From the NCBI GenBank assembly GCA_030539115.1, contig JAUNSR010000007.1, positions 14,929 through 78,928 on the forward strand: 64,000 nt of DNA, in the 5' to 3' direction. Below the pieces are notes generated by a model, which saw only the letters and a program-made list of their open reading frames with translations, had not been told where the DNA came from and made no database searches. Of the stretch, positions 2,562-62,484 are shown one piece after another; the first letter of the stretch is position 1; each line of letters opens with the position of its first letter. Source of the DNA: Bacteroidales bacterium (GTDB taxonomy: Bacteria; Bacteroidota; Bacteroidia; Bacteroidales; JAUNSR01). Position numbers and translations under genes: made by a program.

Positions 2562-3405
2562 AAAGATAACATTCTATATTAAGTTTAAGATTAAAGTCAA
2601 TCTTTAGAAATTATGTTGCCTAATAAATTAATTAAGCGACAAAATTCATTTAATTTGAGATATCAAAGAGGATAAATCATGACGCATTTTTATCTTAGTG
2701 TTAAAGATTTAATTATATGGAGATAAATTTATATCGATATAATAAATATAAATTCCCTATTTTCTTAAATAAATACTTATAAGATTAATTTGTAACACTT
2801 GATTTTAATCAATGTTTTTTTTATATGATTTGAGAACCTTTGATAATAACTTTTTTGTTTTATTAATAATGAAATTGAAAAATAGAATTAATTGTAAAAT
2901 AATATAAATAATTGATAATTAGTAAATAACAGTGTGCGATTTAAAGTGGTTTTTATAATTTCTACAACTTCGTTTAGGTTATAATTGCTTTCTTTTTATA
3001 TTGCGAATGAGATGTATGGCATATTACAATAGAGGCATTCAATCATATCGGGCTCATTTTTAAGTTTATTAATTTGTTTTATTAATATGACATCATATGT
3101 ATCTATTAAATAAACGTTATTATAGATATTATCATTATATTTCTTGTTAGTAAAGGACAAACATGAATATAGGCAACACTACCGACAATCGGATGATATG
3201 AAGAGATTATTCGTTTGCAGTGATGGGAAGATATTGGTCACCTATTGCAAAATGAATCGTAGAATCAGACGATATTGAAAGTATAAGTGAACTGAATTAA
3301 ACATACGAGCTAGCCAAGAAGCAATAAAAAATTTTAATTGCGTTTTAGTGAATTCAAATAAAAGCATTTGAGCTTCTGAGCAAAATCGCAACGTGATATA
3401 GCATG

Positions 3406-7667: not shown

Positions 7668-7751
7668 TACGAAGGAGGAGATTCGAACTCCCACACCGCA
7701 ACCGGCACTACCCCCTCAAAGTAGCATGTCTACCTATTCCATCACCTTCGC
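7668..7751 (-). tRNA. tRNA-Leu (anticodon GAG), class II with long variable arm
   Basis: Reverse complement is GCGAAGGTGATGGAATAGGTAGACATGCTACTTTGAGGGGGTAGTGCCGGTTGCGGTGTGGGAGTTCGAATCTCCTCCTTCGTA. Anticodon stem is CTACT/GGTAG and the loop is TTGAGGG. Predicted G1-U72 wobble. No encoded CCA. Confidence 0.85.
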
Positions 7752-7765
7752 AAATTAAATAAAAG

Positions 7766-7849
7766 TACCCAAAACAGGGCTCGAACCTGCACATCCTTTC
7801 GGACACTAGTACCTGAAACTAGCGCGTCTACCTATTTCGCCACTTGGGC
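7766..7849 (-). tRNA. tRNA-Leu (anticodon CAG), class II
   Basis: Reverse complement is GCCCAAGTGGCGAAATAGGTAGACGCGCTAGTTTCAGGTACTAGTGTCCGAAAGGATGTGCAGGTTCGAGCCCTGTTTTGGGTA. Anticodon stem is CTAGT/ACTAG and the loop is TTCAGGT. It also has G-U pairs in the acceptor stem. Confidence 0.85.
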
Positions 7850-8306: not shown

Positions 8307-8402
8307 ATAAAACCGTCATAGCTTATCCAATAACATATGCCATATAAAAGGTATTTAAATGGCGCATTTGCATCTCGGTGTTAAAAATAGATTATATAGA
8401 TG
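8307..8402 (+). repeat. AFSR repeat copy A (diverged); its 3' ATG is the start codon of the phosphatase gene
   Basis: ATAAAACCGTCATAG...AAAAGGTATTTAAATGGCGCATTTGCATCTCGGTGTTAAAAATAGATTATATAG-ATG aligns to the family consensus. Confidence 0.7.
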
Positions 8403-9701
8403 AAAAGCAGGTTTATAACAATAATAACTTTAATTCTCCTTCTTATGTTGTCGGCATGCAATGAAAAAGATTTAAGAATGAATGGAACTGATATGCCTTA
8501 TGTTTATAAAGAACAGAAATATACACCGGCACCTGAAAGTTTCGTGCCTTTTTATATAAACTTTGTTTGCAGACATGGTTCCCGTTATCCAATAGAATCC
8601 AAATATATTGATGAATTGATTGAGGTTTTATCAGATGCTGAAAAAAAATCAATGATAACTCTTACAGGATCTCAACTAAAGACTTCATTAGAGCATATAA
8701 TTAATAAATTTAATAATAAATGGGGCCTTTTAAGTCATGTAGGTGTTGCCGAGATACAAGGAATTGCTTCAAGAATGATTAAAAACTATATTCATGTTTT
8801 TGATGAAGCTATATACGTGCAAAGCGATTCCGCTGAAAGATGTGTAAAAACTATGGATGCGTTTATTGATGTATTTAAAAATAAAAAAGACAGTATTAAA
8901 ATCAACACTGAAATTGTAAAGAAAGACAATGTAGTATTGAATTTTTTTGATGTTAATTTAGAATATCTGAAATTTAAGAAACATGGAACATGGAAAAACA
9001 TATATAATAGTTATTCAGACTCGATTTTGGGAAATACTCGGTTATTATATAAGTTCTTTCTTCCAGAGTATGTAAGTACCATAAACAAAGCCCCTCAGTT
9101 TCTTCATGCCCTTTTTAAAATAAATGCAATACTACCTAACACAGATGAAAAGATTTCACTAAAAGACTTCTTTACAGGTGAAGAGGAATATTTATTATGG
9201 AATACTCAGAATGTTAAGGAATATATGGAAAAAGGACCTTGGCCGGGAGAGTATGGTCTTCAGACAGACATTTCTTTCCCGTTATTAGAAGATTTTCTGA
9301 TTACTTCATATAATTCCATTGTTGATGGTGGAGTCAGTGCAGACTTTAGATTTGCGCATGCTGAAACAATCATACCATTTGCAGCTTTTCTTGATATTAA
9401 CATTGCTTCTGCCAAAACTATGGATATTAATAATGTAAGCAATGTTTGGAAAGATTTTGAGATAGCTCCTATGGCTGCAAATATTATGTGGATTTTTTAT
9501 AGCAATAATGATGGAGAGATAATTGTAAAAATGCTGCTTAATGAAAAAGAGGTTAGCTTTCCTGTTAATTCAAATATAACGCCTTATGCTCATTGGGAGG
9601 ATATTCAAAAATATTATCAAAACAAACTTGATGCTCTTTCTGTAATTCCATCATTATCTACTGAGGCTAAACTTAAATATTTTAAAGAATATAAAAAATA
9701 A
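8400..9701 (+). CDS. histidine acid phosphatase, MINPP-like (putative phytase), lipoprotein
   Basis: Signal and lipobox LLLMLSAC. RHGSRYP catalytic motif (FVCRHGSRYP) and HAE (FAHAETIIP) in place of HD, as in multiple-inositol-polyphosphate phosphatases. Confidence 0.75.
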   Translation: MKSRFITIITLILLLMLSACNEKDLRMNGTDMPYVYKEQKYTPAPESFVPFYINFVCRHGSRYPIESKYIDELIEVLSDAEKKSMITLTGSQLKTSLEHIINKFNNKWGLLSHVGVAEIQGIASRMIKNYIHVFDEAIYVQSDSAERCVKTMDAFIDVFKNKKDSIKINTEIVKKDNVVLNFFDVNLEYLKFKKHGTWKNIYNSYSDSILGNTRLLYKFFLPEYVSTINKAPQFLHALFKINAILPNTDEKISLKDFFTGEEEYLLWNTQNVKEYMEKGPWPGEYGLQTDISFPLLEDFLITSYNSIVDGGVSADFRFAHAETIIPFAAFLDINIASAKTMDINNVSNVWKDFEIAPMAANIMWIFYSNNDGEIIVKMLLNEKEVSFPVNSNITPYAHWEDIQKYYQNKLDALSVIPSLSTEAKLKYFKEYKK

Positions 9702-14675: not shown

Positions 14676-14753
14676 CTATATCTTAAATAAAGGTATATAA
14701 ATGGCGCATTTGTACCTTAGAGGTAACGGTTATAAAAAAATTATATATAAATG
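14652..14753 (+). repeat. AFSR repeat copy B in the trkH-trkA spacer; its 3' ATG is the trkA start codon
   Basis: 14685-14753 (AAATAAAGGTATATAAATGGCGCATTTGTACCTTAGAGGTAACGGTTATAAAAAAATTATATATAA-ATG) is near-identical to copy F. The 5' part overlaps the trkH stop and is only weakly alignable. Confidence 0.75.
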
Positions 14754-15440
14754 AAATTCATAATTATTGGTTTAGGTAATTTAGGCTATACAATGGCCAA
14801 GTTACTTACAGAACAGGGAGATGAAGTTATTGGTGTTGATTCAAATCTTTCAAGAGTTGAAGAATATAAAAATGATATGTCCAGCACAATTTGTATGGAC
14901 GTCAGTGAATTTCATGCCTTAAGTTCTTTGCCTATTAAAGAAGTTGATGTCGTAATTGTTGCTATAGGTGATGTGTTGAGCACTTCAATAGAAGCTGTCG
15001 CCTATGTAAAACAATTGGGAGCTAAAAGAATCTTTGCGAGAACAAATTCAAGAGTTGAAACTGCCATTCTTGAAGCTATTGGAATAGACTGCATTATGAA
15101 GCCAAGTGAATTTGCTGCTGAAATGTATAGTTTTGATGTTAGCTCTTCAAAGATTGAAGCTCTTTTTCCTGTTGATGACTCCTATCGTATTTATGAATTC
15201 AAAGCTCCAAAGGTCTTTTTGGGCAATAATATAGAATCTTTAAAGCTTGAAGATAATTTCAAGATGAAGCTTGTTTCTGTTTTGCGCCCCACATTCCAAT
15301 TGAATATGTTTGGAAATAAAAACAATGTATTAAAGGTTATATCCGACATCTCTCCACAAACAATTATTAATGAGGGTGACGTTTTAGTTGTTTTTGGCCG
15401 AAAAGAAGATTTTGCAAAAATGAAGAAACTTATATCTTAA
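14751..15440 (+). CDS. trkA: TrkA/KtrA potassium uptake protein, NAD-binding subunit
   Basis: MKFIIIGLGNLGYTMAKLL Rossmann GxGxxG at the N-terminus and a C-terminal TrkA_C-like region. Confidence 0.85.
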   Translation: MKFIIIGLGNLGYTMAKLLTEQGDEVIGVDSNLSRVEEYKNDMSSTICMDVSEFHALSSLPIKEVDVVIVAIGDVLSTSIEAVAYVKQLGAKRIFARTNSRVETAILEAIGIDCIMKPSEFAAEMYSFDVSSSKIEALFPVDDSYRIYEFKAPKVFLGNNIESLKLEDNFKMKLVSVLRPTFQLNMFGNKNNVLKVISDISPQTIINEGDVLVVFGRKEDFAKMKKLIS

Positions 15441-15490
15441 AAAAAACATAACTTATCCAAAGTTGAAACACCCCTCAAAAGTTACATTAA

Positions 15491-45555: not shown

Positions 45556-45625
45556 TGAAACAATATCACAAATAATAGGCAATTAAATATGGTTTATTTG
45601 CCAATTGAATACAAAAATTTTATTT

Positions 45626-47443
45626 ATGAATCAAAATAACTTTTTAATTTCCTCCAAACCAAGATATGAGATTCTTGATGGGCTTCGAGGTGTGGCAGCA
45701 TTAGTTGTTGTTGCATTCCATATCTTAGAAACCTATTCCAAAGGGCCTGCTTATCATGTTATCAATCATGGTTATCTTGGAGTAGACTTTTTTTTCGCTC
45801 TTTCTGGTTTTGTGATTGGTTATGCTTATGATGACCGTTGGAATAGAATGTCGTTAAAAGATTTCTTCAAACGTCGTATTGTTCGATTACATCCATTGGT
45901 AATATTAGGATGTGTTTTTGGTCTTTTTATGTTTTATTTTACTGATTCATCATTCTTCCCATTAGTTAATGAAGCACCCTTATGGAAAGTTTCTATTTTA
46001 TTCATATTAGCTTCTCTAATGATTCCTTCACTTACTAAATGGGATATAAGAGGATGGCAGGAAATGAATGTATTCAATAATCCTACATGGTCTTTGACAT
46101 ATGAATATATTGCAAACATATTGTATGCTCTATTCATTCGTCGTTTCAATACTAAAACACTTGCTTTTTTTGTTTTTTTATTTTCATTGTTTACAATAAA
46201 TCTAACAATGAATATTGATGCTTTGGGAGTATGGAAAACACGAACAAATGAAGCCTTTACAGTTATTGGTGGATGGTCGATGACAATAGACCAAATTATT
46301 ATAGGATTTACACGCCTTTTATATCCTTTCTTTATAGGTTTACTGCTGTCTCGTATTGGTAAACGTATTAAAGTAAAAGCAGGTTTTTGGATTTGTTCCA
46401 TAATTATTTTAATCTCACAGTTTATGCCTCGCATAGGAGGAGAAGAACATCTATGGATGAACGGGCTATATGAAACAATAATTATTTTGTTTGTTTTTCC
46501 TCTTGTTGTAAGCATCGGCGCCGGCAGTGAAGTAAAAGGTAAAACTTCACAATCTCTTTGCAAATTTCTTGGGGAAATATCTTATCCCTTATATATAATG
46601 CACTATCCTTTTGCCTATTTGCAGATGAAATGGGTAAGTGAGCATCAAGATTCTCCTTTATCCATACATGTATTTGTTGGCATCTCTGTATTCTTTCTTG
46701 CAATAGGTGTTTCTTATGCCGCTCTTAGAGTGTATGACATTCCTGTTCGTGAATGGCTTACCCGTAATTGGATAAAAACAAATAAAAATGTCAAAAATGA
46801 TAAACCTGTTATTGCTATGGAATTGTATGATGTAATGGACAAACGTCGCACTTATCGTGACTTTACAGATCGTGAAGTAAGTGATAAAATACTTAAAAGA
46901 GTAATAAATTCAGCTTTTAAAGCTCCTACAAACGACCATCTTCGTCAACTTGAATTTGTTGTTGTTAGAGGTCGAGAGAATATTGGCAAAATAATTGCTC
47001 CTCTTGGAAAGAATATTGATGATTTTAAAAAACTTGTTTTCGAGGTAAATGATTCAGCCGATAAAGATAAAATGGATATGTTTGCAGATGCACTTCCAAA
47101 ACAGCAAAAAATGTTGATGGAGAGTGGACTGCTTATCATACCTTTCTATAGACAAAAACAAACTCCTTTACTTAAACCTTCTGAACAAAGCTCATTAAAT
47201 TATTTTGCCTCTGCATGGTGTGCATTAGAAAATATGTTGCTTGCTGCAACACAAGAGGGATTAGGAAGTGTATTTCATATTCCTGTAAGCGATGAAACGG
47301 ATAAAATAAAGAAGTTGGTAGGAGCTCCTGAAGAGTATGAATTCATATGTCTTCTTACAATCGGATATCCTGCAGAAAATGCTTTTATTCCAAAGCAAAA
47401 GCAAATAAATGTTGAAGATAGGATACATGAGAATGTTTGGTAA
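45626..47443 (+). CDS. fusion protein: acyltransferase family 3 (membrane) N-terminal domain plus nitroreductase C-terminal domain
   Basis: The track ORF begins at a TTG (45605); the first ATG is at 45626 (MNQNNF..). YEILDGLRGVAALVVVAFH plus about 10 TM helices indicate Acyl_transf_3. From about residue 400, YDVMDKRRTYRDF...APTNDHLRQLEFVVV...GYPAEN is nitroreductase-like. Confidence 0.75.
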   Translation: MNQNNFLISSKPRYEILDGLRGVAALVVVAFHILETYSKGPAYHVINHGYLGVDFFFALSGFVIGYAYDDRWNRMSLKDFFKRRIVRLHPLVILGCVFGLFMFYFTDSSFFPLVNEAPLWKVSILFILASLMIPSLTKWDIRGWQEMNVFNNPTWSLTYEYIANILYALFIRRFNTKTLAFFVFLFSLFTINLTMNIDALGVWKTRTNEAFTVIGGWSMTIDQIIIGFTRLLYPFFIGLLLSRIGKRIKVKAGFWICSIIILISQFMPRIGGEEHLWMNGLYETIIILFVFPLVVSIGAGSEVKGKTSQSLCKFLGEISYPLYIMHYPFAYLQMKWVSEHQDSPLSIHVFVGISVFFLAIGVSYAALRVYDIPVREWLTRNWIKTNKNVKNDKPVIAMELYDVMDKRRTYRDFTDREVSDKILKRVINSAFKAPTNDHLRQLEFVVVRGRENIGKIIAPLGKNIDDFKKLVFEVNDSADKDKMDMFADALPKQQKMLMESGLLIIPFYRQKQTPLLKPSEQSSLNYFASAWCALENMLLAATQEGLGSVFHIPVSDETDKIKKLVGAPEEYEFICLLTIGYPAENAFIPKQKQINVEDRIHENVW

Positions 47444-47491: not shown

Positions 47492-47595
47492 TTTAAAACG
47501 CCATAACTCACTAAAAGTTGAGATACCCAACAAAAGGTATATTAATGGCGCATTTGTACCTTAGTGTAAAAAATTAAATTATATATAAATTAAAA
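47492..47595 (+). repeat. AFSR repeat copy C (both flanking ATG-type heptamers read TTAAAA)
   Basis: TTTAAAA-CGCCATAACTCACTAAAAGTTGAGATACCCAACAAAAGGTATATTAATGGCGCATTTGTACCTTAGTG..ATTATATATAA-ATTAAAA. It ends 43 nt upstream of the ATG at 47638. Confidence 0.8.
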
Positions 47596-48606: not shown

Positions 48607-48753
48607 ATGTTTATCTCTACTTTTTATGCTATTGCTAAAGAAAGAGAGGATGAATCATTTCCTTTTAATCATCATCAATTAAAGAGAGAGTGTATTGAAC
48701 TATCAAATGGAGTATTTGCATTTGTAGGTTACAGTTCTTCAAATTTTGGATAA
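48607..48753 (+). pseudogene. N-terminal fragment resembling an MBL-fold hydrolase (truncated)
   Basis: Short ORF MFISTFYAIAKE...IELSNGVFAFVGYSSSNFG ends in a double stop. A +1 shift continues IIKTNHGYILIN, which is MBL-like. The assignment is weak. Confidence 0.3.
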
Positions 48754-48759
48754 TAAAAA

Positions 48760-49185
48760 CTAATCACGGTTATATATTAATTAATGAAGCTAAAAATATA
48801 TCAACTCTGGCAGGAGGAACAAATAAATTTATAAGTGCTGTAAATAAGGCTTTAGATCAAAAAAAATTCTTCCTGCTTAATATTCCCATATTTTTTGCAG
48901 AAAACTTCGATGTATCAATCACAAAATGTTTTTGGCTTAATTAATTATGGAGCTACTTGGGCTCTTATTGAAAACATACTTCTTTCTTCAACAGCAGAGA
49001 ACCTCGGTTGTGCTATTCATGTTCCGGTAGGAAAAGAAGATTCCACCTTTCATTCGCTTCTAAATGTTCCTGATAATTATACTCTTCCGGCTATAATAGG
49101 AATAGGATTCCCGGATGAGAATGCTCAAACGCCGACTCAAGTATCGGCAACGATAGAAGAAAAAGTGCATTGGGAAAAATGGTAA
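48760..49185 (+). pseudogene. nitroreductase C-terminal remnant (frameshifted, lacks the N-terminal two thirds)
   Basis: ORF 48895..49185 (..NYGATWALIENILLSSTAENLGCAIHVPVG...GIGFPDEN...) aligns with the C-terminus of 45626..47443 (..NYFASAWCALENMLLAATQEGLGSVFHIPVS...TIGYPAEN). An upstream piece LLNIPIFFAE, in another frame, aligns with LLIIPFYRQK. Confidence 0.6.
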
Positions 49186-49642: not shown

Positions 49643-49801
49643 AATTGTAATTTTTTACAAACTTAACCAGAAAAGTTAATTATAAATAGATTTTAGTGTT
49701 TAAATAAAAACGCAATAACTCTCTTAAAGTTGCAATAGTTAAGTAAAAGTAAATTTATGACCCATTTAAGCTTTTGCTAAATTAATAGTTGGACATTATT
49801 A

Positions 49802-50121
49802 TTCATTTGTATATTATTTATTTTCCTAACCATAACTTCTAAGGTGCAAATGCGCCATTTATATACCTTTTGTAAGGTATCTCACCTTTAAGTGAGTTAT
49901 GGCGATTTCATTTGTATATTATTTATTTTCCTAACCATAACTTCTAAGGTACAAATGCGCCATTTATATACCTTTTGTAAGGTATCTCAACTTTAGGTGA
50001 TTTATGGCGATTTCATTTGTATATTATTTATTTTTCTAACCATAACTTCTAAGGTACAAATGCGCCATTTATATACCTTTTGTAAGGTAACTCAACTTTA
50101 GGTGATTTATGGCGATTTCAA
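49802..50121 (-). repeat. AFSR tandem array D: three units of exactly 105 bp
   Basis: TTCATTTGTATATTATTTATTTT starts at 49802, 49907 and 50012. Units are more than 90% identical. The array lies 160 bp upstream of the ASCH gene. Confidence 0.95.
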
Positions 50122-50834: not shown

Positions 50835-50920
50835 TTTCATTTGTATATATTTTAATTTTTAACACCGAGGTACAATTACACCATTTATATACCTTTTGTT
50901 GGGTATCTTGGCGGTTTTAT
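50835..50920 (-). repeat. AFSR repeat copy E (degenerate, hairpin 1 deleted)
   Basis: In element orientation it reads ATAAAACCGCCAAGATACCCAACAAAAGGTATATAAATGGTGTAATTGTACCTCGGTGTTAAAAATTAAAATATATACAA-ATGAAAC. Confidence 0.65.
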
Positions 50921-50930
50921 TTCAAAAGCT

Positions 50931-52235
50931 TTAATTATCGACTCTTGTGCCGTCACTTTTAATCCAAATGGGAATAGAAGGATCAATACAAGTAACAGGA
51001 AAACGAAGTGTAGTGTCGTAAATAGTCTGCATAAAGTTTGGAGCATATGTAAGACGTTCCTCTTTTGAACACATTTGTTTCTGTGCATCATTTTTACTTG
51101 TAACATTTTGTCCGTTACCTTTTGCCCAGAATGGCTTTTTGGGAGTATTGGCATGATAGAAACCATCCTGTTCAAAACTCATGATATTATAATCTATACT
51201 TCCATACCATTGGCCAGGAACTTTTTCTGTTGCTAAATTACCACCGATAGCAAAATAATTAGGATAATGCTCCATATTGAAATTAATAATTACTACAGGT
51301 TGACGACCGGTATTATCTCCAAAAAGAGGGTAGTTGGCAGAAGCTTCATCACAACAGTTTATTAATGTTATAGGATGAACCCATACACCGCTTGTAAGAG
51401 GATAACAATTGAAAGTAAATCCATACCTGCAAAATACTGAACCAAGATTTGTGCCGTAATAATGTTCTCCTCCAACAGCAAATCCAACTCCAAAAGAGGT
51501 GCAATCAACATATTCGATATTAAATTCCAAACAATTGTTTGAACCCTGAACTCCTCTAACGCCGATACATCCCTCAACACCTAAATGTGGAGTGCTGTTA
51601 ATATCATATCTGTTTTTATCACTGCCTTGCAGGGCACAATGCATTACACGTATTGATTCAAACATAATTCCATCAATACAGACAATATTTTTTTGGTTAT
51701 ACGGAAGAACAATAGCAATGTATCTGAAATCCAAATGAGTTTTTCTGTTTTTCAAACTGCGAATGACTGCATATTGTTGAGTGGAATCCAAGTTGTCATA
51801 ACAGGATTTAGAAACTGTAAATAAAACTCCATTATATTTAAAATCAAGAGGATTGTCACCTAAATGAATATCAATGCTGTTGCAGTCAAAACCTATTAAT
51901 CTGATTTTTGAGTGGACATCATCTTCTCCGGGAATGCCAAGAGCATAGAATGGAGTCCCATCGGTGGTCTCTTGAAAATGATCGAAAATATATACACCTG
52001 CCAAAAATTGAATCTCGCCATAACTGCCCAAGCTGTTAATGGCATTTTGAATTGTTTTTTCATCATTTTTGCCGGTGCATACGATGTCTGCCGATGACTT
52101 GTCGGCATTTGAAGAATTTACTGCTGCTATAACAATTTTATGACATTCTTTAAATAGTTTTTGTTCATCCTTTTGTGAAAATGCAGCAATGTTCACACAG
52201 AATAGGAATAAAATAAGGCTTTCGAGTGTTTTCAT
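50931..52235 (-). CDS. hypothetical secreted protein, possibly right-handed beta-helix (pectate-lyase-fold) protein
   Basis: I place the start at MKTLESLILFLFCVNIAAFSQ (52235). The track's 14-aa N-terminal extension runs into repeat copy F. ..DIVCTGKNDEKTIQNAINSL..GEIQFLAGVY resembles Pectate_lyase_3 N-termini. Confidence 0.45.
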   Translation of the reverse strand: MKTLESLILFLFCVNIAAFSQKDEQKLFKECHKIVIAAVNSSNADKSSADIVCTGKNDEKTIQNAINSLGSYGEIQFLAGVYIFDHFQETTDGTPFYALGIPGEDDVHSKIRLIGFDCNSIDIHLGDNPLDFKYNGVLFTVSKSCYDNLDSTQQYAVIRSLKNRKTHLDFRYIAIVLPYNQKNIVCIDGIMFESIRVMHCALQGSDKNRYDINSTPHLGVEGCIGVRGVQGSNNCLEFNIEYVDCTSFGVGFAVGGEHYYGTNLGSVFCRYGFTFNCYPLTSGVWVHPITLINCCDEASANYPLFGDNTGRQPVVIINFNMEHYPNYFAIGGNLATEKVPGQWYGSIDYNIMSFEQDGFYHANTPKKPFWAKGNGQNVTSKNDAQKQMCSKEERLTYAPNFMQTIYDTTLRFPVTCIDPSIPIWIKSDGTRVDN

Positions 52236-52257
52236 GACTTCTGTAAAGTGTTTGTAT

Positions 52258-52365
52258 ATGAAATCGCCATAACTCACCTAAAGCTGAGATACCCAACTAA
52301 AGGTATATAAATGGCGCATTTGTACCTTAGAGGTAACGGTTAAAAAAAATATATATATACAAATG
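52258..52365 (+). repeat. AFSR repeat copy F (solo, full-length 105-nt unit with ATGAAA at both ends)
   Basis: ATGAAATCGCCATAA-CTCACCTAAAGCTGAG-ATACCCAACTAAAGGTATATAAATGGCGCATTTGTACCTTAGAGGTAACGGTTAAAAAAAATATATATATACAA-ATG. No gene follows it directly. Confidence 0.9.
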
Positions 52366-52541
52366 AAAGAAATAGACAAAAATAATCTCTTTTAGTTTAT
52401 TTCTTGATAATCATTACAATATAATATCAAAGAAAGGAATAAATTTCTTAGTAAAATGATTTTTATGCAAATTCTTATTTATTTGTTTATTTTATGACAA
52501 TAAACCTTCATTATTTAATTTTGATTGTCATTATTATAATA

Positions 52542-52676
52542 TGTCTTAAGTAACATAAATGTGTAACTTAAGTATGTTTGCATACTATCTTAAGTAACAT
52601 ATTAAACTATCTTAAGTAATTTAAACATGTTATTTAAGTCGTACGTTAGTGTATCTTAAGTTGTTTAAATAAATTG
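52542..52676. repeat. iteron-like array: six CTTAAG-centred boxes at exact 22-bp phasing
   Basis: CTTAAG at 52545, 52567, 52589, 52611 and 52655, with TTTAAG at 52633. Conserved core (C)TATCTTAAGTAA with variable 10-12 nt between boxes. Confidence 0.9.
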
Positions 52677-53129
52677 ACAAGTATAATTTGAAAATTAATG
52701 ATTAAAAATTAATGTTGACAATTCAGATGATAAGAGCATAATTAAACAACCGAGTAGAAGAGTGTTTTGTTTAATAAATAAGTTGTTAAGAGATGAATAT
52801 ATTTTACAGCAATTGATTTTCGTACAAAATAACAAAGATTTTATTTACTGCAATTCGATTTATTTTGATAACATAATATCTCATATACGAAATATTGGAC
52901 AACCATTCGATGCAAATAATCAGTTTATGACTATTAATCCCAAAGCAAGAATGGATGGAGTGATTTTTGTTAAAGAGTCGGAGTGATTTTGTTGGAATAA
53001 AATAGGAATATGTATAGATGTTTTTTTGATAAATTTCAATATTCGTTAAATTACGAACACTTCTTTATTTAATTATTTTAAGTCAGTATATTTGTGAGTG
53101 GAAAATGTAAGTCGTTTTTTATTCTCTTA

Positions 53130-53137
53130 TAGATTTG
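53130..53137 (+). promoter_or_regulatory. candidate -7 box (TAGATTTG) of the arsR operon
   Basis: TAnnTTTG match 78 nt upstream of the ATG at 53215. Confidence 0.4.
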
Positions 53138-53155
53138 TATACTAAAAAGAGGTAT

Positions 53156-53177
53156 AAATGATTTGCAAATATCATTT
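53156..53177. promoter_or_regulatory. palindromic candidate ArsR operator
   Basis: AAATGAT-TTGCAAAT-ATCATTT, a 7-bp inverted repeat around a TTGCAA centre, just downstream of the -7 box. Confidence 0.5.
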
Positions 53178-53214
53178 TGTGAATAATTAGAATATGTATT
53201 AATAAAAAGATTAT

Positions 53215-53535
53215 ATGTCCAAAGAATATACTATCCGACAAGAGCAAATAGCCCGTTTTGCAAAGGCTTTAGGTCATCCGGCACGTATTGCAATATTGGA
53301 TTTTTTACTTAATCAGGAAACTTGCTATTTTGGAGATATTCATGATGAACTTCCCATATCAAAAGCTACCGTTTCCCAACATTTGAAGGAGTTGAAAGAG
53401 GCGGGTCTTATTCAAGGAGAGATAGAAACGCCCAAAGTAAAATATTGTATTAATAAGGAAAATTTAAAGCTGGCAAATACTTTGTTTGGAGAGCTTTTGG
53501 GAAAAGACTTACATAAAAAAGAAAATTGCTGTTAG
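53215..53535 (+). CDS. arsR: ArsR/SmtB-family metalloregulator
   Basis: [18 protein letters not shown]...[19 protein letters not shown], with a C-terminal CC pair. Confidence 0.85.
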
Positions 53536-54848: not shown

Positions 54849-54947
54849 ATGGAAATGCCATAACTCAGCTAAAATTGAGATACACGGCAAAAGGTATATA
54901 AATGGCACATTTATACCGTGATGCTAATAATAAATTATATATAAATG
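54849..54947 (+). repeat. AFSR repeat copy G; its 3' ATG is the start codon of the PatB-like gene
   Basis: ATGGAAATGCCATAA-CTCAGCTAAAATTGAG-ATACACGGCAAAAGGTATATAAATGGCACATTTATACCGTGATGCTAATAATAAATTATATATAA-ATG. Confidence 0.85.
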
Positions 54948-56120
54948 GAGAACTACGATTTTAATAAATATATCGATAGAAAGAACAGTGATTGTGTAAA
55001 GTATGATGCATTGAAACAATTCTATGGAAGAGATGATTTGATTCCTCTTTGGGTTGCTGATATGGACTTTGAAACTCCTGACTTTATCATTGATGCCATC
55101 AAAAAAAGGCTTGAACATCCTATTTTAGGTTATCTTTCAATCCAGGATGGTTACTATCAAAGCATAATTGACTGGTGTGCAAAAATTCATAATTGGGATA
55201 TTAAAAAAGAATGGATTTCATACATTCCCGGCATTGTAAAGGGGGTAGGACTTGTATTGCAGGCTTTTACAAAGCCCGGTGACAAGGTTATTATTCAGCC
55301 TCCGGTTTATCATCCTTTCAGAATAGTTCCTGAATTAAATAAAAGAGAGATTGTTTGGAACAATCTTATATTTGAGAATGGGGAATACAAAATGGATTTT
55401 AAACAACTTGAATCTATAATCACTCCGGATTGTAAAGTTTTGATTCTTTGCAATCCTCATAATCCTGCCGGTATTGTTTGGGATAAAGAAACTCTTATTC
55501 AGCTCGCCAAGATTTGCAAAAAGCATAATATACTTGTCATATCTGACGAGATACATTCTGAAATGGTTCATAAAGGTTTTAAACATACCTCTTTTGCAAC
55601 ATCTTGTAAAGAGGCAGCTGAGAATAGCGTTACATTTATGGCACCATCAAAGACATTTAATATACCGGGGATTGTTAGTTCCTATTCCATTGTTCCCTCT
55701 GATACAATTAGAGAGAAGTTTTATTCTTTTCTTGAGGCTAATGAGTTTGGAGATTCAACGATTTTTGCAGTGACAGCGACAATTGCAGCATATGAAAAGG
55801 GTGAAGCTTGGCGTACTCAAATGATGGAATATGTTGAAGAGAACATCTCTTTTGTAAACGATTATATTTCAAATAATATTAAAGAAATAAAATGTTTTAT
55901 ACCTCAGGCATCCTATTTAATGTGGCTTGATTGCAGAGGATTAAATTTAAATCATGATGAACTTATAGACTTGTTTGTCGATAAAGCTCATTTGGCTTTA
56001 AATGATGGAACTATGTTTGGTCCAGGTGGAGAAGACTTTATGAGAATGAATTTAGGAGCTCCAAGAGTAATTTTAGAAAAAGCTTTAAAACAATTAAAAG
56101 ATGCAGTTTCAGGATTATAA
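54945..56120 (+). CDS. PatB/MalY-type cystathionine beta-lyase (class I/II aminotransferase)
   Basis: DRKNSDCVKYD...LIPLWVADMDFETP N-terminal signature and the SPSKTFNIPG PLP-lysine context. Confidence 0.85.
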   Translation: MENYDFNKYIDRKNSDCVKYDALKQFYGRDDLIPLWVADMDFETPDFIIDAIKKRLEHPILGYLSIQDGYYQSIIDWCAKIHNWDIKKEWISYIPGIVKGVGLVLQAFTKPGDKVIIQPPVYHPFRIVPELNKREIVWNNLIFENGEYKMDFKQLESIITPDCKVLILCNPHNPAGIVWDKETLIQLAKICKKHNILVISDEIHSEMVHKGFKHTSFATSCKEAAENSVTFMAPSKTFNIPGIVSSYSIVPSDTIREKFYSFLEANEFGDSTIFAVTATIAAYEKGEAWRTQMMEYVEENISFVNDYISNNIKEIKCFIPQASYLMWLDCRGLNLNHDELIDLFVDKAHLALNDGTMFGPGGEDFMRMNLGAPRVILEKALKQLKDAVSGL

Positions 56121-59418: not shown

Positions 59419-60339
59419 TTATAAACTGGTTGGAACAAGATAGTTCTTTTTATATTCAATCGGTGAGCATCCGGTAATTTCATGAAAAACTCTTGTAAAA
59501 TGATACCTATTGGCAAAGCCGGTCTTTTCTGTAATCATTTCTATACTATAATTTGTATGCAAAAGAAAAAGACAAGCTTTTTTTATCTTTTTATTTTTAA
59601 TAAATTTCTGAATTGTTATTCCCGTTTCCTCTTTAAATAGCCTTGCAAAGGCATTTGTAGCCATATATGTCATCTGAGCTAATTCTTCATTTGAAATATT
59701 CCTGTCAAGATTGTTTTCAATGAAACTTATAGCTTTTCCCACTCTCTCATCTTTGTAAGAATTATTCCAAATGTTTGAATCCATTTTAAAAAACAATTCT
59801 AATATTAAGGATTGAACAGCCATAAACAAGGAAAAATCTATTTTCTCAGCTTGTTTTGATAGGCTTTTGCAGATAAAATCGACTTTTGTTTTAAGATAAT
59901 CTTCAAGTTCAAAGACAAAAATCTGAGGCTTTATATTATCATAAGGATAACCAACAGTGAAATGAATAAAAAGATGCTCGATAAAATCATCTTTTTTAAA
60001 ATTATTTGTTAGTTCGGAAGAGAGGTCAGAGATTCTTCCACCATTTAAAACATAAGATGACTTAGGTATAGAATGATTGAAAAGATGAGATGAATAGCTT
60101 GTATTTGGTGCTATTAAATAAACATGATTTGGAAGCATCTCATATTCAATATTATCATATTTTATAAATCCACCTTTTTTCGAATTATAATAAACTCTCC
60201 AAAAAGGGAAATCAAGCTGTGGATATTCCCAGTTTTTTAACCACCAATATCTACAACAAAGAAGTTGAAGATTAAACTTAGGAAAATATTGAACTAATTC
60301 AGAAGGATCTCCTTTATATGTCTCTTTATTATCTTTCAC
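59419..60339 (-). CDS. AraC-family transcriptional regulator
   Basis: C-terminal HTH (..MITEKTGFANRYHFTRVFHEITGCSPIEYKK). Divergent from fucI. Confidence 0.85.
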   Translation of the reverse strand: MKDNKETYKGDPSELVQYFPKFNLQLLCCRYWWLKNWEYPQLDFPFWRVYYNSKKGGFIKYDNIEYEMLPNHVYLIAPNTSYSSHLFNHSIPKSSYVLNGGRISDLSSELTNNFKKDDFIEHLFIHFTVGYPYDNIKPQIFVFELEDYLKTKVDFICKSLSKQAEKIDFSLFMAVQSLILELFFKMDSNIWNNSYKDERVGKAISFIENNLDRNISNEELAQMTYMATNAFARLFKEETGITIQKFIKNKKIKKACLFLLHTNYSIEMITEKTGFANRYHFTRVFHEITGCSPIEYKKNYLVPTSL

Positions 60340-60361
60340 AATCTAATGTTTGTTTTAGATA

Positions 60362-60369
60362 CAAATATA
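60362..60369 (-). promoter_or_regulatory. candidate -7 box (TATATTTG on the minus strand) of the AraC gene
   Basis: The + strand reads CAAATATA, 23 nt upstream of the ATG at 60339. Confidence 0.4.
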
Positions 60370-60404
60370 TATGTTTTGGATATTTATATTGCATTATCTC
60401 TCAG

Positions 60405-60412
60405 TAACTTTG
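60405..60412 (+). promoter_or_regulatory. candidate -7 box (TAACTTTG) for fucI
   Basis: The only TAnnTTTG match I found upstream of fucI. It would place both AFSR units inside a 5' leader of about 290 nt. Confidence 0.3.
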
Positions 60413-60520
60413 TCTCAGAAATAAAAAACACAGAATAATATATAGATATATTTTTATTCAAAATAGTTAATTGTCATTTTTAGTGACATAAAATGATTTT
60501 AAAATAAAAACAATATATAA

Positions 60521-60711
60521 CTGCCATAGCTCACCTAAAGGTGAAATACCAAATAAAAGGTATATAAATGGCGCATTTGTACCTTAATGAAAATAATATA
60601 AAAATACACAAATGAAACCGCCATAACTCACCTAAAGGTGAAATACCAAATAAAAGGTATATAAATGGCGCATTTGTACCTTAATGAAAATAATATAAAA
60701 ATACACAAATG
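60521..60711 (+). repeat. AFSR tandem array H: two units of 97 bp; the second unit ends in the fucI start codon
   Basis: The ATGs at 60612 and 60709 are 97 bp apart. The units are identical except at their 5' ends (CTGCCATAGC versus CCGCCATAAC). Confidence 0.95.
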
Positions 60712-62484
60712 AAAAAACATCCTAAAATTGGTATTCGCCCTACAATAGATGGTCGTCAGGGTGCTCTTCAAGTAAGAGAATCTCTTGAAGAACAAACAAT
60801 GAATATGGCTAAATCTGCAGCTAAACTATTCACAGATAATTTAAAATATTCAGATGGTTCTCCAGTTGAAGTCGTAATTTCAGATACAACGATAGGTCGA
60901 GTTGGGGAAGCTGCAGCTTGTGCAGAAAAGTTTAGAAAAGAGGGAGTTGACATAACCTTAACTGTTACTCCTTGCTGGTGTTATGGCTCTGAAACAATGG
61001 ATATGGATAAATTGACAATAAAAGGAGTTTGGGGATTTAATGGAACCGAACGTCCCGGCGCTGTTTATCTTGCTGCTGTTCTTGCGGGGCATGCACAAAA
61101 AGGTCTTCCTGCTTTCGGTATTTATGGACATGATGTTCAAAATGCAGACGATACTTCTATTCCTAATGATGTGCAAGAGAAACTTCTTCGTTTTGGTAGA
61201 GCCGCCATTGCTGTTGCCCAAATGAGAGGACAATCTTATCTTCAGATTGGCTCTATTTGTATGGGGATTGCCGGTTCTATAATAAATCCGGAATTTATTG
61301 AAGAATATCTTGGTATGAGAGTTGAATCGGTTGATGAAGTTGAAATAATTCGTCGCATGACTGAAGGCATATATGATAAAGCCGAATTTGAAAAAGCATT
61401 GGCTTGGACAAAAGAAAAATGTAAAGAAGGTGTCGATAAGAATCCTATAGAATTGCAAAAATCTCCGGAACAAAAAGAGAAAAATTGGGAGTTTGTTGTA
61501 AAGATGATGATAATTATCAAAGATCTTATGCATGGAAATCCTGATCTTCCAAAGGGTTGTGAAGAGGAAAAAATAGGACATAATGCTATTGCTGCAGGTT
61601 TTCAAGGACAAAGACAATGGACAGACTTTTATCCCAATGCTGATTATCCCGAAGCTCTTTTAAACACTTCTTTTGATTGGAATGGAGCAAGAGAACCTTT
61701 TATTTTAGCAACAGAAAATGATACTCTTAATGGATTGGGTATGTTGTTTATGAAGCTACTTACCAATCGTGCTCAGATGTTTGCCGATGTTCGTACTTAT
61801 TGGAGTGGTGATGCTGTAAAGAAAGCAACAGGATATGAAATTGAGGGAAAAGCTAAAGAAGCTGACGGCTTTATTCACTTGATTAATTCAGGAGCTTGTT
61901 GTTTGGATGCTTGTGGAGAAGTAAAAGATGAAAATGGTAATGGTGTGATTAAACCATGGTATGAAATGACCAAGGATGATCAAAATAAAGTAATGGATTC
62001 TGTTGAATGGTGTGCTGCTGATTGTGGCTATTTTAGAGGTGCAGGTTATTCTTCAAGGTTTATTACAAGAGCAGAAATGCCGGCTACTATGATTCGTTTA
62101 AATCTTGTAAAAGGACTTGGCCCAGTTCTACAAATTGCTGAAGGATGGACCATTAATCTTCCGGATAATGTTTCTGATATTCTTTGGAAAAGAACTGATT
62201 ATACTTGGCCTTGTACTTGGTTCGCTCCTCGCATAACAGGAAAAGGCGCTTTTAAATCAGCTTATGATATGATGAATAATTGGGGCGCAAACCATGGCGC
62301 AATTAGTTACGGTCATATAGGAGCTGATTTAATTACTCTTTGTTCTATTCTTCGAATTCCCGTATGTATGCATAATATTGAAGAAAAAGATATTTTCCGT
62401 CCTGCTTCATGGAATGCTTTTGGAATGGATAAAGAGGGACAGGACTATCGTGCATGCAAAAATTATGGACCTTTATATAAATGA
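60709..62484 (+). CDS. fucI: L-fucose isomerase
   Basis: [35 protein letters not shown]... is collinear with E. coli FucI through the C-terminal ..[13 protein letters not shown]. Confidence 0.95.

Follow-up and report, generated by a model that had tools for sequence, protein, structure and literature searches.

The repeat at positions 52258-52368 of the 64-kb stretch of Bacteroidales DNA analysed here (hereafter the window) is one copy of a dispersed family of short units. We interpret this family, with a probability of roughly 0.68, as a non-autonomous, orientation-specific insertion element that has ATGAAA on both sides after integration and that is tolerated at start codons, where the orphaned frame is stopped, the element is read through and an A/T-rich leader is supplied. 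The element is real and apparently undescribed. Each unit measures 90-105 nucleotides (nt), is non-coding and contains no open reading frame (ORF) of more than 4 codons. Filled sites follow a general plan, in which ...ATGAAA is followed by TCGCCATAAC...core...A/T-rich tail...TATACAA and then by the ATGAAA of the gene. The copy at 52258-52368, called copy F, reads ATGAAA-T-CGCCATAACTCACC...GGTATATAAATGGCGCATTTGTACC...AAAAAAAATATATATATACAA-ATGAAA and has these features:

52258..52263, plus strand: left ATGAAA hexamer, the orphaned upstream start codon
52258..52272, plus strand: mini-ORF ATG AAA TCG CCA TAA (MKSP*), with an in-frame stop from the element 5' end right after the left hexamer
52264..52362, plus strand: element body (TCGCCATAAC ... 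ATATATACAA), 99 nt, without ORF and without terminal inverted repeat
52265..52316, plus strand: helix P1, CGCCAT (52265-52270) with ATGGCG (52311-52316), two small hairpins inside
52317..52365, plus strand: helix P4, CATTTGTA (52317-52324) with TACAAATG (52358-52365), right-hand ATG included; compensatory changes in G, L004 and L017
52363..52368, plus strand: right ATGAAA hexamer, opening a 9-codon ORF only, with no gene behind

An early in-frame stop after the left ATG was found in every copy that keeps this ATG, as read from the aligned sequences.

Filled and empty sites and the duplicated hexamer

Four orthologous gene starts were found in both a filled and an empty state, with one ATGAAA in the empty allele and two in the filled one, which supports the target-site duplication expected from the original prediction. 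At all four loci the hexamer of the empty allele is the start codon plus second codon of the gene, and the filled allele has two hexamers around about 90 nt. At fucK, the empty start (contig L010) reads ...TTTAATACCACATT ATGAAA GACATCGCG, and the filled start (L007) reads ...TTTAATACCACATA ATGAAA, then the element TCGCCATAAC...GAATAATACAA, then ATGAAA GACATCGCG. The start of the biotin-carrier gene in the methylmalonyl-CoA decarboxylase (mmd) operon is empty in L012/13, L014-16, L020 and L027; it is filled with one unit in L018, with two in L017 and L019 and with at least three in L002, and diverged copies occupy it in L024 and L025. The rubrerythrin start is filled in L020 and empty in L014, L017-19 and L025. 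Finally, the AP-endonuclease start is filled in L014, carries a 5'-degenerate form in L017/18 and is empty in L027 and L025. At the mmd locus the element is present or absent between relatives with a 95% identical neighbouring protein, and one or two units were found in contigs encoding an identical 297-amino-acid neighbour (P0244). Copy number differs at the strain level, a very recent change.

These filled and empty pairs come from related contigs (L numbers) and not from the window's own copies, for which the closest usable PatB homologues were about 64-65% identical. Two higher-scoring homologues, P0122 and P0123, were left out of the PatB comparison as assembly chimeras with internal duplications. 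Relatives were fetched via proteins adjoining copies, using FucI of the window and then an OadG-like subunit beside the array in the metagenome-assembled genome (MAG) bin31. FucI is too conserved to single out relatives, yet it led to the fucK site. The resulting syntenic contigs form a graded series of relatives with a G+C content (GC) of 40-47% and were scanned with the element profile. The conserved core was present in only two Bacteroidales MAGs of a species-representative genome collection. In all, copies were found in at least 8 Bacteroidales assemblies besides that of the window; carriers include GCA_036650035.1, GCA_036649595.1, GCA_036655355.1, GCA_051646395.1 and CGS10Y1-bin31.

The heptamers on which the duplication had been proposed are all present. 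Copy F has ATGAAAT at 52258 and ATGAAAG at 52363, copy G ATGGAAA at 54849 and ATGGAGA at 54945, copy C TTTAAAA at 47492 and ATTAAAA at 47589, copy A ATAAAAC at 8307 and ATGAAAA at 8400, and copy E, on the minus strand (50920..50835), ATAAAAC and ATGAAAC. We compared flanks within and between copies in a permutation test on 15 independent loci, for which arrays were collapsed to one locus each and copies from other genomes were added. Left and right hexamers of the same copy agreed in 79 of 90 positions, where permutation gave 75.7 on average (P=0.0097), and the same test on heptamers gave P=0.0008. This signal is carried mainly by copies G (ATGGAA/ATGGAG) and C (TTTAAA/ATTAAA). A PatB homologue begins MERYNF, so the native target is a plausible source of the ATGGA(G/A) in copy G. 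The proposed duplication of 6-7 bp holds insofar as a hexamer is doubled around an insert of about 90 nt; its length is 6 bp (ATGAAA), possibly 7. The shared unit comprises six bases because the left seventh base is normally the first base of the element (T or C before CGCCAT).

The ATA/ATG pairs of copies E and A, which the prediction had listed among its flank pairs, are recast as decay of a useless upstream ATG, since the right ATG works and the left one is free to decay. The left ATG is decayed at 5 of the 15 loci (A, E, H1, D1 and L018; the decayed forms are ATA three times, TTG and AAG). Wherever a gene begins on the right ATG, which is the case at 11 loci, this ATG is intact. Because the left ATG decays and the right one is kept, the right copy is taken to be the working start codon. 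A separate case was observed in L025 (14879-14960), where a degenerate copy lies before a NUDIX gene. Its right ATG is now ATA and another ATG, 8 nt downstream, serves as the gene start, which is an example of a start codon shift after insertion decay.

At about one third of the loci (A, H, L002, L003 and L004), the left flank resembles the 3' tail over 10-21 nt. When the 13 nt preceding the left hexamer are compared with the family 3' tail, 10-13 positions agree at these loci, and 29 element-free ATGAAA gene starts used as a control scored 3-8, with one exception. This exception is a "solo tail" at 3078-3106 of L004, which lies between two histidine-biosynthesis genes and consists of AAAATTAAAATTATATTCAG followed by ATGAAA, with no core upstream. 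The long matches include private variants, such as TATGCAAATG on both sides of L004. They are conserved family tail and not target-site duplication, and most simply represent the remnant tail of an earlier 5'-truncated copy. SINE-like (short interspersed nuclear element-like) retroposition had been considered in view of the 5' truncations, the A-rich 3' region and the long "duplications"; it was rejected because these long matches are family tail and not target. The 5'-truncated copies B, L010 and L017 keep the last 68, 58 and 51 nt, respectively. Together with the solo tail and with the "empty" mmd site of L012/13, whose sequence is likewise tail-like, they suggest progressive 5' deletion that keeps the part turned gene leader, with later re-occupation or array growth beside the remnants.

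Copies in the window and their genes

An nhmmer profile was made from eight window copies and used to scan the window, which has about 32% GC and contains ordinary Bacteroidales housekeeping and sugar-use genes. The scan yielded 11 good copies and 3 degenerate ones. Besides copy F, the family members are:

2640..2722, plus strand: weak, degenerate family member (nhmmer E=6e-4)
8307..8405, plus strand: copy A, 5' half rearranged; left ATAAAA, right ATGAAA as the start of a histidine phosphatase gene (8400..9701)
14688..14756, plus strand: copy B, 5'-truncated, between the trkH stop and trkA; right ATGAAA is the trkA start (14751)
15447..15490, plus strand: weak partial family member just past the trkA stop (nhmmer E=2e-3)
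47492..47594, plus strand: copy C, variant hexamers TTTAAA / ATTAAA; DUF1848 gene start (47638) 43 nt downstream
49711..49773, plus strand: degenerate copy, 3'-truncated, convergent with array D
49802..50121, minus strand: array D, three head-to-tail 105-nt units, 93-98% identical, ATGAAA at every junction
50835..50920, minus strand: copy E, internally deleted; ATAAAA on the left, ATGAAA on the right; MobA-like gene about 60 nt downstream
54849..54950, plus strand: copy G, variant hexamers ATGGAA / ATGGAG; right ATG is the start of a PatB-type aminotransferase gene (54945)
60515..60714, plus strand: array H, two 97-nt units, 98% identical; right ATGAAA is the fucI start (60709)

Every copy has the orientation of its downstream gene, and the left junction of intact copies always adjoins ATGAAA or a decayed form of it. 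The suspected preference for start codons was supported: the right ATG is a gene start at 11 of 18 independent loci, compared with 4-21% of ATGAAA hexamers that open a long ORF (binomial P between 3e-11 and 2e-4). Enzyme specificity or a selection filter, or the two together, may lie behind this bias. A filter is conceivable because other ATGAAA sites lie mostly inside genes, where an insertion would be lethal or costly.

No sense-strand terminator-like site was found inside the copies, which fits their location inside operons such as trkH-trkA and the mmd operon. A sigma-70 scan gave no excess of promoters (38 found versus 45 expected), and a Bacteroidetes-type TTTG / TAnnTTTG pair was not seen by eye in either orientation of the element. 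We conclude that the element probably carries no promoter.

Several observations concern the surroundings of individual copies. Downstream of copy F (52363-53214) there is no convincing gene for 850 nt, and the gene once preceded by this copy may have been lost. The same gene-free stretch, which ends at an ArsR/HTH_20-type regulator gene at 53215, contains four direct TCTTAAGT(AAC) motifs at 52544-52661 with a spacing of 44, 22 and 44 nt, accounting for 4 of the 6 occurrences in the window; they look like operator or iteron sites. In copy F alone, the left flank TTTGTATAT (52251-52259) and the tail ATATACAAA (52355-52363) form a perfect inverted repeat. This flank lies 20 nt upstream of a divergent minus-strand gene that itself starts with ATGAAA at 52235, and could be what is left of a tail that pointed the other way.

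Around array H (59419-62484), the window has the order AraC (minus strand), array H, fucI, and lacks fucK to fucU. The relatives L006, L007 and L010 have AraC (minus strand) followed by fucK-fucP-(fucU)-fucI-aldolase, and the element at the fucK start of L007 occupies the same AraC-proximal position as array H. A loss of fucK-fucU in the window via deletion between two element copies is a speculative explanation. Short ORFs at 48607-49185 resemble, by eye, the C-terminal nitroreductase half of an acyltransferase-nitroreductase fusion protein encoded at 45605-47443; they gave no Pfam match at 1e-4 and are probably a gene fragment. Two adjacent tRNA genes on the minus strand (7668-7849) are the sole Rfam matches in the window.

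Fold, proposed mechanism and rival readings

An inverted-repeat search on F and L007, with 7 possible end registers inspected by eye, revealed no terminal inverted repeats. The inverted repeats common to the copies are all internal, namely CGCCAT/ATGGCG (P1) and CATTTGTA/TACAAATG (P4), the latter containing the right-hand ATG. When eight copies taken from five genomes were folded at minimum energy, P1 formed in 8/8 and P4 in 7/8, side by side. The only fold without P4 was that of copy C, which has no right ATG. In an alignment of 22 sequences, 90% of the proposed pairs were formed, compared with 25-45% when the partners were slid. Compensatory changes were found in P1 of copy G (C-G to U-A) and in P4 of G and L017 (G-C to A-U) and of L004 (U-A to C-G). 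A long hairpin, GGTATATAAATG-GCG-CATTTGTACC, offers an alternative in which 96% of the pairs are formed, but it has no compensatory change and is broken by the L004 T-to-C change that P4 compensates. It was rejected as the main fold and is a possible alternative conformer. The element centre ATGGCG-CATTTGTA is furthermore complementary to the right-end/left-end junction TACAAATG-AAAT-CGCCAT.

We propose that a unit of about 90-105 nt, belonging to a Bacteroidales clade, integrates in one orientation at ATGAAA, mostly at the Met-Lys start of a gene. It would be tolerated since it is built for this site. Its first bases would stop the orphaned ATG frame (MKSP*), the lack of a sense-strand terminator would let operon transcription continue across it, and its A/T-rich tail would act as a new Shine-Dalgarno-less leader for the regenerated start codon. 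The regenerated ATG is predicted to pair with the internal CATTTGTA (P4) beside P1, and on a single strand this would bring the element ends together; the P1/P4 fold could serve single-stranded DNA transposition or translation control on the mRNA. The mobilising enzyme would act in trans, and a circle junction of the element would read ...TACAAATGAAATCGCC... The hexamer could be doubled by a staggered cut, which would fit copies G and C best, by recombination at a common core or by an HUH-type insertion. Tandem arrays would arise later, by slippage or unequal crossover between flanking hexamers, and the same process could delete the element precisely, while deletions on the 5' side would produce the truncated copies and solo tails.

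Bacteroidia initiate translation without Shine-Dalgarno pairing and use features such as upstream adenines, according to excerpts of a published account (PMC13000457). A translational relay may be envisaged on the same fold, in which the element would be a start-codon-homing DNA. Ribosomes on the orphaned ATG would translate the MKSP mini-ORF over P1 (CGCCAU) and free UAUAAAUGGCG to pair with CAUUUGUA. The regenerated AUG would thereby be released from P4 and initiation passed from the old to the new start, while on single-stranded DNA the same P1/P4 fold would join the ends for excision and integration. We regard this elaboration as rather doubtful. If true, it would describe a mobile element adapted to start-codon insertion at little cost to the gene.

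Several results weigh against the interpretation as an insertion element. According to the gene tables, a transposase or recombinase is absent from the window and from the 10 kb around related copies, and no longer element with the same ends (TCGCCATAAC... / ...TTATATACAA) was seen. Half of the window copies, namely C, D, E and F, lie elsewhere than on a start codon. The window copies are about 20% divergent, and recent change is confined to the arrays. At the mmd locus, copies of several lineages have common tail variants (TAGAT), and therefore some "empty" sites are possibly secondary precise losses and not never-occupied sites. Concerning the fold, covariation is thin, with 6 compensatory cells that were equalled by 7/500 shuffles, so that the compensatory support for P1/P4 is real but thin. 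G-U versus A-C mismatches (18 versus 14) do not tell which strand folds.

Pfam on 40 window ORFs returned no transposase, integrase or HUH protein and only a housekeeping RuvC. Neither a Y1 (HUH) transposase or RAYT nor a DEDD gene was seen in the window or the fetched loci, and no TnpB was seen near copies. Rfam, at the gathering threshold and at permissive E-values, yielded only the two tRNAs in the window. GP20-a was rejected as the element family, since its 19.8 bits against a threshold of 47.2 are an A/T-rich chance match. The core pattern had 0 matches in JGI metagenomes; the left-end pattern had 3, all rejected as chance, on soil contigs of 47-66% GC without further similarity. Both patterns had 0 matches in IMG/VR viral contigs, blastn against PLSDB plasmids and INPHARED phages gave no match, and the literature searched holds no description of such a start-codon element.

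A derivative of the single-strand HUH/Y1 type (IS200/IS605) would insert 3' of ATGAAA without any duplication, and the right ATGAAA would be its own right-end cleavage site. Such an origin would account for the lack of terminal inverted repeats, the strict orientation to an asymmetric target, the sub-terminal hairpins and the seamless empty sites. Moreover, the internal sequences are complementary to both ends and could join both junctions on one strand, and a right end equal to the target would invite insertions beside the element itself. However, copies G and C have non-consensus hexamers on both sides, albeit at two loci only. The spacing between the P4 region and the right junction differs among copies by about 10 nt, unlike the fixed geometry of IS608-type ends. 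Together with the lack of a Y1 transposase or TnpB near the copies, this makes an HUH derivative unlikely, though worth keeping in mind.

The head-to-tail arrays (D, H and those of relatives) had been ascribed to repeated re-insertion into the regenerated ATGAAA. ATGAAA is indeed present at every D and H junction, and the tail-like left flanks at about one third of the loci would fit a reuse of sites beside an existing tail. On the contrary, units of one array are 93-99% identical and have private variants in common, while copies at different loci are 81% identical on average and 91% at most. L017 and L019 have the three hexamers AAAGAA, ATGGAA and ATGAAA, so that their junction is a chimera ATG|GAA, as unequal exchange between the right and left repeats would produce, and not a copy of the target, and one or two units occur beside the identical P0244. 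Because of the within-array identity, the private variants and the chimeric junction, we ascribe the arrays to slippage or unequal crossover between flanking hexamers, which explains them better; re-insertion is the weaker explanation and seems rather improbable. In L002 (5847-5943, MAG bin31), a run of N was observed inside the element array. It may be an assembly gap or masking, and in the former case arrays break short-read assemblies.

As for dispersal, a transposition-like process is needed to account for the spread over at least 18 unrelated sites. Window copies are 80% similar to each other and 81% to copies in the relatives with 40-47% GC, and the AP-endonuclease copy, probably also the mmd copy, is common to lineages with a neighbouring protein of 72-85% identity. 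As the similarity across genomes matches that within the window and copies are common to diverged lineages, the family is old in the clade.

Alternatively, the repeat could primarily be a conserved cis-regulatory leader RNA, a structure for translation control that would sequester the AUG and had been recruited to many genes, and not selfish mobile DNA. This would explain why copies are always in sense orientation and end on the start codon. The conserved fold, which pairs the AUG with CAUUUGUA and shows compensatory changes, and the mini-ORF overlapping P1 would also fit. The downstream genes, however, are unrelated in function (histidine phosphatase, TrkA, DUF1848, MobA-like, PatB, FucI, FucK, biotin carrier, rubrerythrin, AP endonuclease, GH97), and this speaks against a leader specific to one regulon. 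Presence and copy number vary beside a 95%-identical or even identical neighbouring protein, tandem arrays reach three or more units, identity is about 80% in loops as well as in stems, and there is no Rfam family match (the best, GP20-a, is below threshold). We therefore consider a leader RNA very unlikely. A by-product of AT-rich sequence and of ATGAAA as the commonest start context, without any duplication, can practically be dismissed: ATGAAA is frequent (135 window sites) and most flank pairs are plain consensus, but both permutation tests speak against it, a 17-nt tail motif is nearly confined to element copies (12 matches versus 2.8 expected), and the four filled/empty comparisons refute it.

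Significance and comparison with known systems

No described counterpart was found in Rfam or the searched literature for landing on a start codon with self-repair. The repair would consist of three things: the start codon is doubled, the orphan frame is stopped at once, and the gene receives a portable leader lacking a Shine-Dalgarno sequence. If true, Bacteroidia would possess in this element a natural, portable cassette for translation initiation, in a group for which the rules of start-site selection are still being worked out, as excerpts of PMC13000457 indicate. It would also cause rapid strain-level variation of 5' leaders, with near-identical strains carrying anything from one to three or more units, as well as mis-called start codons and broken assemblies. 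Furthermore, it would offer a concrete target sequence for finding a new site-specific recombinase or transposase.

The original prediction had called the element MITE-like, after MITEs (transposable elements of the miniature inverted-repeat type). This description is apt in that the unit is short, non-coding, multi-copy and dispersed, with a duplicated target, but strictly speaking it falls outside the MITEs because terminal inverted repeats are absent. The Correia elements of Neisseria are MITEs with terminal inverted repeats that insert at a 2-bp TA target in either orientation, are co-transcribed and can alter the expression of neighbouring genes. Like them, the present element is short, non-coding, multi-copy and non-autonomous, has a short duplicated target and lies beside genes. 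Unlike them, it lacks terminal inverted repeats, inserts in one orientation at an asymmetric target of 6 bp and, landing on a start codon, rebuilds it.

Palindrome-associated elements of the IS200/IS605 group and the REP/BIME-RAYT systems are similar in their lack of terminal inverted repeats, hairpin ends, oriented insertion and seamless empty sites. IS200/IS605-derived and REP/BIME-RAYT elements do not duplicate their targets, which are 4-5 nt long, and REPs lie mostly after genes. In contrast, variant hexamers are duplicated here (G, C), the right-end spacing is variable, and no Y1 gene was found in the window or the fetched loci.

The IS110/IS1111 family uses a DEDD recombinase guided by a seeker or bridge RNA, as described in the available parts of PMC11187229. 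Sequence- and orientation-specific insertion, the lack of terminal inverted repeats in the IS110 type, and a core common to junction and target are, as far as these parts go, features that our element shares (PMC11187229). The same holds for non-coding RNA segments complementary to the element ends (PMC11187229), with ATGGCG-CATTTGTA versus TACAAATG(AAAT)CGCCAT as the counterpart in our element. The same source describes autonomous elements of 1.2-1.5 kb that have a guide RNA of about 150-200 nt and a recombinase gene (PMC11187229). Our unit differs in that it has only 95 nt and no second guide for the variable target flanks, and no DEDD gene was seen. The guide-type resemblance may thus serve as a lead only.

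Finally, Rickettsia palindromic elements insert in frame and are translated, and introns (IStrons, group II introns) are spliced out. The element described here resembles both in that a selfish insertion persists in a gene-dense genome and leaves the host gene functional. Unlike those elements and introns, it is neither spliced nor translated into protein: the start codon is doubled, the orphan frame is stopped after 4 codons and the gene receives a new leader.

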